Source: an uncultured Anaerolineales bacterium (GTDB taxonomy: Bacteria > Chloroflexota > Anaerolineae > Anaerolineales > UBA11858). Taken from it: 64,000 bases of DNA. Position 1 is the first letter of the stretch. Each line of letters begins with the position of its first letter. A program made the position numbers and the translations under genes. Of this stretch, positions 48,152 through 54,008 are shown in pieces. The notes under the pieces are model-generated. The model was not told the origin of the DNA. It did not search any database and worked only from the letters and a program-made list of their open reading frames with translations. Where the stretch lies: assembly GCA_964618295.1 (NCBI GenBank), contig CAZTWV010000012.1, forward strand, positions 929 through 64,928, written 5' to 3'.

Positions 48152-50299
48152 ATGGTTAAGGGGTTCGTTAACCGTTTAAGGGAGCAGGATCGTGCTCAAG
48201 CAATGGTGGAATTCGTCATTGCGCTGCCGATCCTGCTTTTTATAATTTTTGGGATCATTGAATTTGCCCGGATGACCTTTGCCTGGATGGCGGTCCAAAA
48301 TGCAGCCCGTTTCGGCATTCGCTATGCAGTTACGGGGGAGTACAGTGAGATTTACTGTGTGGAGGCGGGAAACCTGCTGGGAGCAGCTCATGTAGCGGCG
48401 GATACAGATGGGGGTGATCCCCAGGACTGCCAGATCCCCGATACCTACCCCGGCGCGGATAAAAACGAAAAAGAACGTGAGCTGATTGACATGGCCCGGC
48501 TCTTTTCCATCCAGGATGCTGCTCTGGGGGGGGGGACTGGTTTATGGCTCCGGCCCAATATTTCCGGGAATTACGAGCAGTACCTGGATAACCATAATGA
48601 TTCATTCATCGGTCTTCCGACCGAGCAGGGTTATTACCATGTGACGGTCTGCAGCAATCGGGATAACCGCTATGGGATGGATTATTCCAACTATGCCATC
48701 CCGCTCTGCAAAGATATGGCCAGCGTGGAGTTGATGGATGATGCTGGAGGACCCGGGGATCGGGTCAAGGTCCGGGTTCAGCATCAGCATCCCTTGTTTT
48801 TGCCCCTGCTGACCAATATCTGGCCTTCGGTTGGATTAAATGCTGAGAGAGACGGAATCGTAGAAAAGTTCCGAACCAGCCGGGTGATAGGGGTTTCTGG
48901 ACCAATCCTTTCTGCCCCGACCTGGACCCAGACACCAACCATCACCCTGACACCTTCGACTACTCCGACACCGACCGAGACAAGTACAGCGACGCCGACT
49001 GAAACACCAACGCCGTCGAACACGCCAATACCAGTTGACTGTGATTTAATCAATATTGTTGACGCTGAAGTTGCCCATTACGGCTTTGGATATTTTATGG
49101 CCCGGATGTCAATTCAGAATGCAAACCCGGTGCCAATCCACCTTTTTCAGGCCGACCAGGGTTGGGAGAAAAATTTTCCCTTCAGGGAAGCCTATGCCTT
49201 CCAATTTAACAGCAGCCCCTTTGAAATTTTGAATGACCCAAATCCTCCGACAATCTGGATCCCAGGTTCCCCGATCGAAATGGTTTCTGGTGATGTGGGG
49301 GATTACATTGCCCTCTTCAATCCGCCCTTCATTCCAGTTTGGGGAGCCACTTCAATTGACCTTACATTTGATGACAACTGTCATAAAACAGTTGGTTTTA
49401 ACATGCCGTCTCCCACACCAACAGAAACTTCGACCATCACACCCACCCCAACCATCACCCCAACCCCGGACTGCAGTCAATACAGCATGACCGGATTTAG
49501 CTTTCAGAATAATGCCATTCAGCAGATGTCGGTTACCAATGGAGATGTGGTGGACACCACCGTGCAGCAAATTCAATTTGATTGGAATTATGCGGAGCAA
49601 TTTGGGAATCTCAACGGTTACCCGAATTTACATGTTGATTTTTTCCGCTGGGATTCGACCGATTTCTTTATGGGAGGAAACAATGACTGGATCCGGGATT
49701 TCAGTTCACCCAGCAGCTGGTCCGGTTCGCTGCCTTTTGACAGCGGGGATTCCTATACCTGGATGATTGATTTTGATGGTGACTGGGGCGGGAGTGGATC
49801 CCTGACCGGAGTGGTCAATAATGATTTTGGTGTGATCATAGATTTCAGCAACGGCTGCCAACTGCGCCGGGACGCTGTTCCTCGGGCTCTGGTGACCTGG
49901 ACACCGACCAATACACCGACAATCACCTATACCCCGTCACCTCCACCCCCGCCAACTTCGACCCCGATTCCGACCTGGACGCCGCTGCCGACAGCTACCC
50001 CGCTGCCGACCTTTACTTTCACACCCTCCTGGACGCCGTCAATCACGCCGTCCCCCACAATTACGAGGACTCCTTCGAACACACCTATCCCACCCACGGC
50101 CAGCAGTACCCCGGTCCCAACCAATACTCCGGTACCGAGCAATACACCGATCCCTACCAACACCTTCACGCCTGTTCCTACAAATTCACCTACAGCAACA
50201 AAAACTAGAACACCGACCCCGGTTCCATCCTGGACTCCTGCCTGCCCATTTGATGATCCGAACTGGCCCTGTCAGCCAACCTGGACACCCGGTCCCTAA
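48152..50299 (+). CDS. Large TadE-headed surface protein with Pro/Thr linkers (paralogue 1, 715 aa)
   Basis: N-terminus AQAMVEFVIALPILLFIIFGIIEFARMTFAWMAVQNAARFGIRYAVTG (TadE domain), then a conserved ~230-aa domain. Three Pro/Thr linkers separate two globular modules. The C-terminus is WTPACPFDDPNWPC. Confidence 0.75.
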   Translation: MVKGFVNRLREQDRAQAMVEFVIALPILLFIIFGIIEFARMTFAWMAVQNAARFGIRYAVTGEYSEIYCVEAGNLLGAAHVAADTDGGDPQDCQIPDTYPGADKNEKERELIDMARLFSIQDAALGGGTGLWLRPNISGNYEQYLDNHNDSFIGLPTEQGYYHVTVCSNRDNRYGMDYSNYAIPLCKDMASVELMDDAGGPGDRVKVRVQHQHPLFLPLLTNIWPSVGLNAERDGIVEKFRTSRVIGVSGPILSAPTWTQTPTITLTPSTTPTPTETSTATPTETPTPSNTPIPVDCDLINIVDAEVAHYGFGYFMARMSIQNANPVPIHLFQADQGWEKNFPFREAYAFQFNSSPFEILNDPNPPTIWIPGSPIEMVSGDVGDYIALFNPPFIPVWGATSIDLTFDDNCHKTVGFNMPSPTPTETSTITPTPTITPTPDCSQYSMTGFSFQNNAIQQMSVTNGDVVDTTVQQIQFDWNYAEQFGNLNGYPNLHVDFFRWDSTDFFMGGNNDWIRDFSSPSSWSGSLPFDSGDSYTWMIDFDGDWGGSGSLTGVVNNDFGVIIDFSNGCQLRRDAVPRALVTWTPTNTPTITYTPSPPPPPTSTPIPTWTPLPTATPLPTFTFTPSWTPSITPSPTITRTPSNTPIPPTASSTPVPTNTPVPSNTPIPTNTFTPVPTNSPTATKTRTPTPVPSWTPACPFDDPNWPCQPTWTPGP

Positions 50300-50337
50300 A
50301 CTGGTTCCTGATCATTACCAGAGGATTTCTGATATCC

Positions 50338-50361
50338 AAGCCCCCCTTTCGGGGGCTTTTT
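50338..50361 (+). terminator. Rho-independent terminator after paralogue 1
   Basis: AAGCCCCC-CTTTC-GGGGGCTT followed by a T-run. Confidence 0.75.
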
Positions 50362-50448
50362 GATGATGGTTAATAGAAATTGTTAGCTCTGTTTCAAGAT
50401 TTGGGCGGGAAAACCATCCCAGCTAACAGGATTGCAAGCTGGAAGGTC

Positions 50449-50476
50449 TTGTCCAGATATCACGGGGTGCTAAACT
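50449..50476 (+). promoter_or_regulatory. Candidate promoter of small secreted protein 1 (TTGTCC-16 nt-TAAACT)
   Basis: Same architecture as at 53476-53503, upstream of the paralogous small gene. Confidence 0.5.
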
Positions 50477-50522
50477 ACAAGCGTAAGGATTGATTTCATT
50501 ATTATGGGCGAGGAAGGCAGTC

Positions 50523-50909
50523 ATGGATTCTAAAACAAGCAGGCAAAAAAAATTCTTTCGCTGGATAGGCATTACTCTGCTGATTGCTGCTGCTACCTAT
50601 GGATTCGCTTCCGCAAATACATTGAATATCACCAATTTATCCGGCCAGGGTTATGGTGTAAAATCAGTTTTTGAGGTCTCCGGCATCGGTTATACTCTTG
50701 ATGTGGAGAACCCCGAATATTTCACTGAAGTCCATTTTAATTTAGATGACCAGGATCAATTAGTCCATGCCGGGGTTTCGATCGAAAAACAATCGGAAGT
50801 TACCTGGGCAGATCAATGCAGAGTTGAAAAATCCGGATACAGCTGCACCTTTGAGCCAAGCATCAATGTCCTGGATGCAGATTGGCTCCATGTTGTTAAA
50901 CTGCGGTAA
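50523..50909 (+). CDS. Small secreted two-Cys protein with a SipW/TasA-type-like signal peptide (paralogue 1)
   Basis: GAGGAAGG RBS. The N-terminus is basic, followed by ITLLIAAATYGFASANTL and a ~100-aa mature part with CRVEKSGYSC. Paralogous to 53555-53938. Confidence 0.62.
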   Translation: MDSKTSRQKKFFRWIGITLLIAAATYGFASANTLNITNLSGQGYGVKSVFEVSGIGYTLDVENPEYFTEVHFNLDDQDQLVHAGVSIEKQSEVTWADQCRVEKSGYSCTFEPSINVLDADWLHVVKLR

Positions 50910-50948
50910 GCATTATCTGTGTTTTTCGGATAGAATGAGGGAAGTGTC

Positions 50949-50974
50949 TGGCGTGGGTGATTCAATCCACGCCA
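50949..50974 (+). other. Hairpin TGGCGTGG-N10-CCACGCCA after small gene 1 (no T-run)
   Basis: The stem sequence is shared with the terminator after small gene 2 (GGCGTGG/CCACGCC). This copy lacks the U-tract. Confidence 0.5.
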
Positions 50975-51066
50975 CTTGGCATATCAAAAAGGCAAAAGTA
51001 ATTACCGATTTATGATGGAAGCCGGGGAAGATGGATGGATCAACCCGTCCAGAAGGGAGAACAAGG

Positions 51067-53283: not shown

Positions 53284-53311
53284 CAAATCCAGGTTTCTAA
53301 ATCTGAGATAG

Positions 53312-53340
53312 ACAGCCCTCCCCCGGGAGGGCTGTTTTTG
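53312..53340 (+). terminator. Rho-independent terminator after paralogue 2
   Basis: ACAGCCCTCCC / GGGAGGGCTGT stem followed by TTTTTG. Confidence 0.75.
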
Positions 53341-53443
53341 TACAATTGATGATTTTGGTCTGCCTCCGGTGCGCCCCAGCTAACTTTTCTGTAAGTTTGA
53401 GGTTAAAAACACCTTACAAAACGGCTTTTTGGGCCGAAAATTA

Positions 53444-53473
53444 CCCCAACCTAACAGCATTGTTAGGTTGGGG
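53444..53473. promoter_or_regulatory. Perfect 13-bp inverted repeat abutting the -35 of the small-gene-2 promoter
   Basis: CCCCAACCTAACA-GCAT-TGTTAGGTTGGGG. It ends 2 nt before TTGTCA (53476). Confidence 0.5.
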
Positions 53474-53475
53474 GG

Positions 53476-53503
53476 TTGTCAGAACAGTTTGAGTTGGTAA
53501 ACT
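53476..53503 (+). promoter_or_regulatory. Candidate promoter of small secreted protein 2 (TTGTCA-16 nt-TAAACT)
   Basis: Hexamers at 53476-53481 and 53498-53503, matching the paralogous site at 50449-50476. Confidence 0.55.
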
Positions 53504-53554
53504 GGATGCGCATAGAAAAATAACAAGATCCAATTTTTTTAGTTTGGAGGAAAT

Positions 53555-53938
53555 ATGATGAAACTTTTCAAACAGCGATACAAAATAGCTTTTTTAGTGG
53601 TTTTGGTGTTCACTCTGGCCGCTGCGACCTATGGTTTTGCCGCATCCAACACCGTCCCAGAAACCCGGGCTGGAGAAGGAAACAACACTATCTCCGGTTA
53701 TGTGGTCAGCAATGTGGATTACACGCTGCTGCAGGGGGACCCAACCCAGTTTTCCAGTGTTTCTTTTGATCTGGATAACGCAGCTGATGAGGTGTATGTT
53801 GGTATAGGTTCTACAACGAAAACATACTGGACTGACTGCGGCAACGGCGGTAGCGGGAACAGCTGGACGTGCGACCTGACTGGTTCAACTGTTTCAGTTC
53901 TGGAAGCGGTTTCTTTAAACGTCTCATCGGCCGATTGA
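53555..53938 (+). CDS. Small secreted two-Cys protein with a SipW/TasA-type-like signal peptide (paralogue 2)
   Basis: GGAGGA RBS. FTLAAATYGFAASNTVPETRAGEG, then a mature part with WTDCGNGGSGNSWTC. Confidence 0.65.
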   Translation: MMKLFKQRYKIAFLVVLVFTLAAATYGFAASNTVPETRAGEGNNTISGYVVSNVDYTLLQGDPTQFSSVSFDLDNAADEVYVGIGSTTKTYWTDCGNGGSGNSWTCDLTGSTVSVLEAVSLNVSSAD

Positions 53939-53973
53939 TCTACCTTGCAGCTGCAGGCTTGATCATGATAATC

Positions 53974-54008
53974 AAAGGCGTGGCTTCCGATAGAAACCAC
54001 GCCTTTTT
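53974..54008 (+). terminator. Rho-independent terminator/attenuator between small gene 2 and the peptidase-EAL gene
   Basis: AAAGGCGTGG-N13-CCACGCCTTT plus TTTTT. Only 24 nt remain before GTG 54033, so the downstream gene probably depends on read-through. Confidence 0.7.

Follow-up and report, generated by a model that had tools for sequence, protein, structure and literature searches.

The DNA analysed here, a 64-kb window from an uncultured, mat-dwelling Anaerolineales bacterium, contains on its plus strand a co-directional block of genes. In the order of the open reading frame (ORF) list these encode a TadE-like minor pilin, a TadG-like protein bearing a vWA (von Willebrand factor A) domain, a first large protein (C1), a first small protein, a second large protein (C2), a second small protein, a fusion of signal peptidase I (SPase I) with DUF5305 and EAL domains, an RTX-repeat protein and a giant surface protein. 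The proteins of the locus were scanned against Pfam and NCBIfam. Judged from their sequences, C1 and C2 are old paralogues in tandem. They belong to a family of modular surface proteins that the searches described here found only in Anaerolineae, and they are alike at both ends and different in the middle.

C1 (48152–50299, 715 amino acids (aa)) begins with a TadE head and an N domain (48152–48925), followed by a Pro/Thr (PT) linker, a central module termed cen1 (49022–49405), a second PT linker, a C-terminal module (C-module, 49460–49897), a PT-rich tail and a CPFDDPNWPC loop (50243–50272). In C2 (51067–53283, 738 aa) the head, with the motif G/QAMTEF, and the N domain (51067–51855) lead through a PT linker into a PA14 domain (51934–52476), which is followed by the C-module (52507–52929), a PT-rich tail and a CPFDDPNWPC loop (53227–53256) identical to that of C1. 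The ORF of C2 opens at 51031, and the ATG at 51067 is preferred for its better ribosome-binding site. BLASTP aligned the two proteins over residues 1–274 with 69% identity (E 3e-132) and over the last ∼277 residues with 48% identity (E 8e-60); nothing could be aligned between these matches, where residues 291–418 of C1 and 290–470 of C2 form the differing middles. At the DNA level, colinearity is limited to the coding parts, with an identity of ∼68–71% in the N domain and of 73–80% where the C-module begins, rising to 87% in a 46-nt stretch at the Cys motif; BLASTN detected no intergenic similarity between the two units. The small genes that accompany C1 and C2 are likewise homologous (36% identity, E 1e-14). 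An earlier, sequence-only reading of this stretch had described a tandemly duplicated, colinear two-gene unit with a single differing central module. Outside the linkers this description is borne out by BLASTP and by the DNA alignment, and the positions given for the swapped middles lie close to those found here.

The cen1 module has no Pfam match, and its profile found nothing meaningful among the PDB sequences (best E 0.063, a picornavirus VP1). The structure predicted from a 45-sequence alignment is all-β with 11 strands and a mean predicted local distance difference test score (pLDDT) of 94.9. In Foldseek searches of the PDB the model matched only generic immunoglobulin (Ig)-like sandwiches (ApaG, PCuAC, adaptin ear, archaeal pilins and FlaF/G), with E values of at least 1e-3 and TM scores of at most 0.5. 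As modelled, cen1 is a generic Ig-like β-sandwich with no close solved relative; the sequence-only description of an unrecognised domain of ∼125 aa holds for sequence searches of Pfam and the PDB, but not for the fold. Nothing indicates ligand binding by cen1. The module is found in only 40 clusters among 1.84 billion representative proteins, and among the full-length proteins of these clusters nearly all have a TadE head joined to the N domain and contain as many as five cen1 copies. Proteins without a TadE head can also contain cen1 and the C-module, examples being a receptor-like protein of the Ser/Thr-kinase type (P0183) and proteins that start with a signal peptide (P0179, P0189 and P0193). 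In P0183 (892 aa) a Ser/Thr protein-kinase-like N terminus precedes cen1 and a weak C-module match, a layout indicating that these modules also serve in a receptor-kinase-like protein.

The middle of C2 is, by profile comparison, a PA14 domain. On its own it scores E 2.5e-4 and 21.3 bits, below the Pfam cut-off of 24 bits, and the whole protein scores E 0.0038. The PA14-like character already proposed for this region is nevertheless confirmed by its homologues, since all 12 members of the domain alignment (A2) match Pfam PA14 (best E 7.3e-12), six of them also matching GLEYA, and the profile finds a PA14 protein in the PDB (6qdi, 8.3e-10) and, weakly, the flocculins. In addition, PF07691 is precomputed in ten independent homologues of the C2 middle, and a PA14 domain is present in the distant orthologue of Leptolinea sp. 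HRD-7 (Pfam 7.8e-16). An S-D-D triplet is invariant in the 12-sequence alignment, and calcium-dependent carbohydrate binding through the Asp-Asp site may be the function of the C2 domain.

TPDCSQY stands at the start of the C-module, and DFDGDWGG lies within it. No PDB match was obtained, and in Pfam only a weak match to DUF7154 was found, in five of 33 members. A common ancestry of cen1 and the C-module, which Cys positions common to both ends had suggested, is unsupported (hhalign probability 7%). The motif at the extreme C terminus is the same in all copies of one genome and different among genomes (CPFDDPNWPC, TWECVDDC, ATYFLE, EEPTPVIIPD and CLTPPDLGGC). Such genome-wide sameness suggests either gene conversion and concerted evolution among the copies or co-evolution with a common, genome-specific partner.

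The TadE heads of both large proteins score above the Pfam cut-off of 22.9 bits (47.2 bits for C1 and 44.6 bits for C2). Across the 175 family sequences with an N terminus that fits the head pattern, 160 have the motif G/Qxxx-E-[FYL], and the other 15 have A/Q. Identity between C1 and its closest homologues decreases from the N domain (75–82%) through the C-module (59–71%) to cen1 (46–57%), a gradient that fits a buried core and an exposed middle. The high conservation of the N domain suggests that it makes specific contacts rather than acting as a bare anchor.

C1 is preceded in the window by the first two genes of a triad. The first (45751–46476) encodes the TadE-like minor pilin (241 aa, Pfam TadE E 4e-12), the N terminus of which reads G/QSFVEL, and a promoter-like site, TTGACG-16-TATAAT, lies before it (45691–45718, 11 of 12 positions matched). 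The second (46489–48072) encodes the TadG-like protein with a vWA domain (527 aa; Pfam Tad (PF13400) 2.6e-07, VWA_2 4.6e-06), whose translation includes a MIDAS-like DTSES motif within LVLVIDTSESMG.

With C1 as the query, 547 homologous proteins were retrieved; only a few carry a name, either "pilus assembly protein" or "hypothetical". In a survey of one genome per species, 60 loci were collected, all from Anaerolineae and including those of Leptolinea tardivitalis YMTK-2 and the complete genome of Leptolinea sp. HRD-7; the module architectures of 86 large ORFs were determined with hidden Markov models built for the modules described here. Essentially all 60 loci with upstream sequence, those of Leptolinea as well as those of close relatives, show the order TadE–TadG(vWA)–large gene. 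Each locus has between one and at least four copies of the large gene, the architectures of which comprise N-cen1-Cmod, N-PA14-Cmod, N-Cmod, N-cen1-Cmod-Cmod, N-PA14-PA14 and N-Cmod with two to four C-modules (with or without cen1), as well as N-gap-PA14 in Leptolinea and N domains followed by unknown sequence. Thus, copy number and central-domain identity, the two properties that the sequence-only reading had singled out for comparison among related genomes, both vary. The layout of the window, with a cen1 copy followed by a PA14 copy, recurs in a second species, on two contigs (L006 and L023) of one metagenome-assembled genome. In two loci (L003 and L004) RcpC/CpaB and further TadE and TadG genes adjoin the triad. 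A third (L005, 3555–9159) contains two tandem large and small units of equal size (690 aa and 128 aa), in which the small genes and their upstream regions are identical, indicating a very recent duplication of the unit.

Some further observations concern individual loci. In L001 a transposase-like helix-turn-helix gene (HTH_Tnp_1, 15827–16282) separates the second large gene from its small gene. Directly upstream of the triad in Leptolinea HRD-7 (L060, 1236–6221), matches to phage capsid, portal and terminase proteins were found, that to the capsid being strong and those to the portal and terminase below the Pfam cut-offs. The sequencing runs that match the window are all DNA, from microbial-mat and sediment metagenomes. 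One sediment-metagenome contig (run X5) fuses the N domain of C1 to that of C2 (window positions 48381 and 51316), skipping 2934 bases with 19 unmatched letters between; this junction may reflect a related population with a single unit, or else a chimeric assembly.

The history of the two copies was examined with neighbour-joining trees on short domains (200 bootstraps). The N domain of C1 is 75–83% identical to first-position copies in other genomes, as compared with 69% to that of C2, and in the tree of the whole family C1 and C2 fall into separate clades. Consequently, the duplication that gave rise to C1 and C2 predates the split of these species. The PA14-type proteins fall into two groups, group A (P0109, P0110, P0111, P0113 and P0114, including the protein of the single-copy locus L002) and group B (C2, P0115 and P0116), which were monophyletic together in none of the 200 bootstraps of either the N-domain or the C-module tree, group B being nested among cen1-type proteins. 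The C-module of C2 is 62–68% identical to those of the cen1-type proteins P0049 and P0060, compared with 47–57% to those of group A, and its PA14 domain is 59–70% identical to those of group A and 69% to that of P0115. Taken together, the two non-joining PA14 groups and the discordant identity matrices reveal that the middle has been exchanged at least twice. The scatter of proteins without a middle (P0076, P0078 and P0089) in the tree indicates that it has also been lost independently.

A near-identical strain (L066) allowed recent change to be followed. At the DNA level it is 97–99% identical to the window in small gene 1 and the N domain of C2, 92–93% in PA14, 76% in two patches of the C-module and 73–97% (mostly 85–90%) downstream. 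Between the two C2 orthologues the synonymous divergence (dS) rises from 0.065 in the N domain to 0.21 in PA14, 0.79 in the C-module and 0.82 in the C-terminal motif, and the ratio of nonsynonymous to synonymous divergence (dN/dS) is <0.4 everywhere. The mosaic divergence from L066 is seen at window positions 52501–52950. The high dS of the C-module and C-terminal motif, combined with the low dN/dS, identifies these patches as imported sequence; positive selection was considered as the cause of the hypervariable C-module patches and rejected on the same two values. Where C2 differs in patches from its L066 orthologue it is closer to C1, with 84% versus 62% at the Cys motif. The proposal that a variable tip is carried on a constant scaffold is not sustained, as the C-module is itself subject to loss, doubling or quadrupling among relatives and has a mosaic make-up when near-identical strains are compared.

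On this basis, C1 and C2 are interpreted as alternative third subunits of a Tad-pilus tip complex that came to differ by domain shuffling, a reading to which a probability of about one half is assigned. Each protein begins with a Tad-type (type IVc) prepilin-like head, comprising the G/QxxxEF motif and a hydrophobic helix, and continues with a conserved globular part of ∼200 aa and with β-rich modules on Pro/Thr linkers; after the middle, both have the C-module and then a long stalk rich in PT, which is closed by a disulfide loop at the terminus. TadE, TadG-vWA and the large protein would together form a tip or priming complex of the TadE/TadF/TadG (KilL/M/N) kind, in which the large protein is the third subunit, its N domain being held within the complex while its modules face outward. 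With two copies the cell would have two alternative tips, one Ig-like and one glycan-binding, that share their TadE and TadG partners. The difference between the middles arose by shuffling at the linker-flanked site, at least twice in the family, and later gene conversion between paralogues would have homogenised the C-terminal motif. The small genes are separate, strongly signalled transcription units for secreted 80-aa β-sandwich proteins that are probably processed by the adjacent SPase I-DUF5305-EAL protein.

The Tad-tip assignment is also favoured by two reports. TadE/F/G-like proteins have been described as heterotrimeric, interchangeable "Tips" that expose variable domains, with four paralogous sets in Myxococcus (Herrou et al. 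2025, PMC12075869), and an expressed Flp/CpaB/E/F/TadB/C cluster has been described in Anaerolineales (PMC4877987). Several observations weigh against it. The 64-kb window has no gene for a Tad ATPase, a platform protein, a prepilin peptidase or Flp, and no Tad machinery lies beside the triad in Leptolinea HRD-7. In C1, residue −1 of the prepilin-type motif (residue 15, 48194–48196) is Ala, giving A/QAMVEF, as opposed to Gly in C2, and the two proteins may be processed differently. After the first ∼55 residues the N domain has no detectable homology to the neighbouring TadE (hhalign aligns residues 10–64 only), nor does it have a PDB relative by sequence. Lastly, members of the family in close relatives are interspersed with small secreted proteins and with a dedicated signal peptidase I, which points to a second, non-Tad system.

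The small proteins would be components of such a system. Small gene 1 (50523–50909, 128 aa) encodes a signal/anchor helix followed by a small secreted β-sandwich protein, as judged from its homology to small gene 2 and its membership of alignment A5. In the AlphaFold2 model of the small gene 2 product (53555–53938, 127 aa; pLDDT 83.4), a helix (residues 2–31) and a conserved disordered segment (32–46) precede a seven-stranded β-sandwich (47–125). Across 30 homologues the signal/anchor helix is followed by a near-invariant A-A-N-T-V-P-x-G-x-A-G-E-G segment, which is disordered in the small-protein model (pLDDT 83), and by the seven-stranded sandwich with one conserved Cys pair. No match to the small protein was found in Pfam, NCBIfam or the PDB sequences, the best Foldseek E value in the PDB was 0.13, and CanA was matched at E 1.0. 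A relationship to cen1 or the C-module was rejected, as hhalign found the domains unrelated.

Each small gene is flanked by its own signals. A degenerate palindrome, CTAACAGGATTGCAAG (50423–50438), and a promoter-like TTGTCC-N16-TAAACT precede small gene 1 (together 50423–50476), and the palindrome CTAACAGCATTGTTAG (53451–53466) and TTGTCA-N16-TAAACT precede small gene 2 (together 53451–53503). Downstream, a GGCGTGG-loop-CCACGCC hairpin is located at 50950–50973 and, with a T run, at 53977–54003. Within 64 kb, TTGTC-N17-TAAACT occurs exactly twice, before each small gene (expected 0.04), GGCGTGG...CCACGCC exactly twice, after each small gene (expected 0.01), and the palindrome CTAACAG-NN-TTGTTAG only at the two small-gene sites (expected 0.17). 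Terminator-like hairpins with T runs also follow C1 (50338–50360, −16.3 kcal/mol, z −3.9) and C2 (53310–53337, −21.5 kcal/mol, z −5.1), and all four hairpins are stable. An Rfam search of 45500–57500 produced nothing credible, and the GGCGTGG/CCACGCC hairpin has no Rfam match.

These elements are also found in other species. The cross-species promoter of the small genes, TTGnCn-N17-(TGC)TA[C/A]ACT, is located 75–90 nt before the ATG; the exact string of the window is not kept elsewhere, and the consensus emerged from a relaxed reading of the upstream regions. The palindrome is kept immediately upstream of the −35 element (L005 and L007–L023) and looks like the binding site of a regulator. In 16 fetched loci the stem GGCGTGG/CCACGCC is retained after the small genes, with loops and flanks that vary freely; an invariant stem is unusual for a plain terminator, and it may be a sequence-specific RNA or DNA element. 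The sequence-only reading had taken the flanking non-coding parts to be duplicated with the genes. The promoter motif, the hairpin and the terminators are indeed present at both units, but the intergenic DNA cannot be aligned and the motifs are regulatory elements conserved across species. Nor is the small gene an obligate partner of the large one, since it is missing from single-copy loci and is outnumbered by the large gene in some arrays.

Downstream of small gene 2, the fusion protein (54033–56405, 790 aa) combines an archaeal-type SPase I (TIGR02228, 56.5 bits, cut-off 51.85; Peptidase_S24) with DUF5305 (33.2 bits, cut-off 29) and an EAL cyclic di-GMP (c-di-GMP) phosphodiesterase domain (1.5e-64). 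It is followed by the small secreted RTX-repeat protein (56409–56858, 149 aa; Pfam HemolysinCabind 1.7e-08), in which A-T-N-T-V stands after the signal as in the small proteins, and by the giant surface protein (57260–64000), which runs off the end of the window at >2246 aa and contains 11 DUF7933, three DUF11 and two SdrD_B domains and a partial post-signal A-x-N-T-V motif. Its homologue in L001 has 2889 aa, with Pfam matches to CLIPPER/DUF11 and a sortase domain. The remaining genes of the window are housekeeping genes (NADH dehydrogenase, ATP synthase, Mur ligase, glycosyltransferases, photolyase and others).

These neighbours give rise to the main alternative, which is regarded as unlikely and in which the large proteins would be membrane-anchored stalks, with the TadE-like helix as signal anchor, that act as anchors, nucleators or tips of a fibre of the small proteins, SPase-processed, polymerised by donor-strand complementation like TasA/AbpX/Tafi and controlled by c-di-GMP. 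In the literature, DUF5305 and SPase I enzymes of the dedicated kind are connected with donor-strand fibres of the TasA superfamily. An accessory role of DUF5305 to SPase I has been reported for Tafi and AbpX loci, which also encode minor subunits, tips, anchors and second-messenger regulators, and its fusion has been noted in Anaerolinea (PMC11821415; bioRxiv 10.64898/2026.01.04.697558). The fused SPase I of the window, above its NCBIfam cut-off, would be the dedicated enzyme of such a fibre, and in close relatives the large/small arrays always finish with its gene. The small genes and the SPase-DUF5305-EAL-RTX block are, however, limited to a subclade of close relatives (N domain at least ∼66% identical), and many genomes have the triad and large gene with neither (L002, L020, L024, L025 and L026–L065, of which L002, L020 and L024 are single-copy). 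Similarly, the signal helix, the conserved disordered N-segment and about six main β-strands of the small proteins correspond to the layout of a donor-strand subunit, but their model matches no TasA-superfamily structure and their ∼80 aa compare with ∼160–200 aa in TasA-like subunits. A conserved promoter of their own is what would be expected for abundant structural subunits, and the A-x-N-T-V motif is common to the RTX protein and partly to the giant protein; against this stand the large proteins themselves, which retain the canonical prepilin-type G/xxxxEF motif and are encoded with TadE and TadG.

An unlikely alternative, too, is that the large proteins are free-standing surface or secreted proteins, acting as glycan-binding and spacer molecules in the sheath, in extracellular polymeric substances or in cell-cell cohesion within mats, with no role in a filament and with a TadE-like head that does no more than direct export or anchoring. 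Extracellular binding proteins typically have modules such as PA14 and Ig-like domains on PT linkers, the occurrence of cen1 and the C-module in proteins of other types would suit this role, and the same is true of the missing Tad machinery near the window and Leptolinea HRD-7 loci. The position of the large gene after TadE and TadG-vWA is nevertheless invariant across the whole class, the TadE head and N domain are found on nearly all full-length proteins of the 40 cen1 clusters, and the N domain is the most conserved part, all of which argue against such a role.

A more speculative proposal, considered quite improbable, combines both systems. In one subclade of Anaerolineae, Tad-type minor pilins would have been joined to an SPase-I/DUF5305 module, the 80-aa proteins being new, miniature donor-strand subunits that polymerise on, or cap, the TadE-headed proteins to give a hybrid type IV/TasA-like fibre under c-di-GMP control, with the palindrome and the 3′ hairpin as dedicated regulatory elements.

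The cassette-type diversification seen in the sequence-only reading stands as an evolutionary pattern, but programmed variation, in which expressed and silent cassettes, inversion or a diversity-generating retroelement would switch the displayed domain within a cell lineage, is scarcely credible: tandem copies that differ in one module and gene-conversion patches between paralogues would suit it, but both genes are complete with their own start, head and terminator, the longest shared DNA is ∼70% identical, the best repeats (71–87%) are short with no long exact or inverted repeats, the Pfam and NCBIfam scans found no recombinase or reverse-transcriptase domain among the locus proteins, and the same layout is stable in another species (L006 and L023).

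Filamentous Anaerolineae bind together microbial mats, sediments and wastewater granules. The locus provides a concrete, testable adhesion candidate, a putative Tad-pilus tip with modules that are swapped, multiplied and gene-converted between and within genomes. If the Tad-tip reading is correct, the idea of an adaptable Tad tip would be extended from predatory Proteobacteria to Chloroflexota, and tip diversification would come more cheaply, by multiplication of one subunit rather than of a whole trio. The SPase I-DUF5305-EAL fusion would couple a dedicated secretion protease to second-messenger turnover. Three protein modules that lack annotation (cen1, the C-module and the small β-sandwich protein) and two conserved non-coding elements are also defined by the analysis, all of them absent from current libraries.

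Several known systems resemble parts of this locus. An archaeal-type SPase I and DUF5305 beside small secreted proteins that share a post-signal motif recall TasA/TapA/SipW, AbpA/AbpX and TafA–G, and beside this likeness a c-di-GMP domain and a giant adhesin are also present in the window locus. Unlike TasA-superfamily proteins, the small proteins are half-size and without a match in sequence or predicted fold, and the SPase module is absent from most triad genomes. The middle of C2 is like the PA14/GLEYA domains (PF07691, PF10528; PDB 6qdi; the yeast flocculins Flo1/Flo5) in its profile match and invariant S-D-D, and differs from more distant PA14 homologues in having four Cys residues and an extra loop, LDCSGTDP....

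Among pilins, PMC12075869 summarises minor pilins of the modular type IV kind in monoderm bacteria, those of Streptococcus sanguinis being PilB, which bears a vWA module, and PilC, which bears a lectin module. In these proteins a pilin head is fused to an adhesive module as here, and a tip heterotrimer confers adhesion. Those are of type IVa, whereas the proteins described here have a Tad-type head, with a lectin-type module that is PA14 and alternates with an Ig-like module in the paralogue, and no sequence homology between the two systems was detected. The closest parallel is with the KilL/KilM/KilN tips of Myxococcus xanthus, where three pilin-like proteins are also co-encoded, with a TadG-like large subunit, the complex in the present case being putative. 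There, too, extra C-terminal modules are proposed to be displayed at the pilus end, and paralogous sets to serve as interchangeable tips. The present locus differs in its host, a member of the Chloroflexota, a phylum that, according to a preprint (bioRxiv 10.1101/2025.08.19.671072), is increasingly regarded as lacking an outer membrane. It differs also in having no adjacent Tad machinery and in the displayed part, which consists of β-rich modules on Pro/Thr linkers with a terminal Cys loop. Moreover, in Myxococcus whole trios are multiplied, whereas here the third subunit alone is multiplied, from one to at least four copies, behind a single TadE and TadG-vWA.

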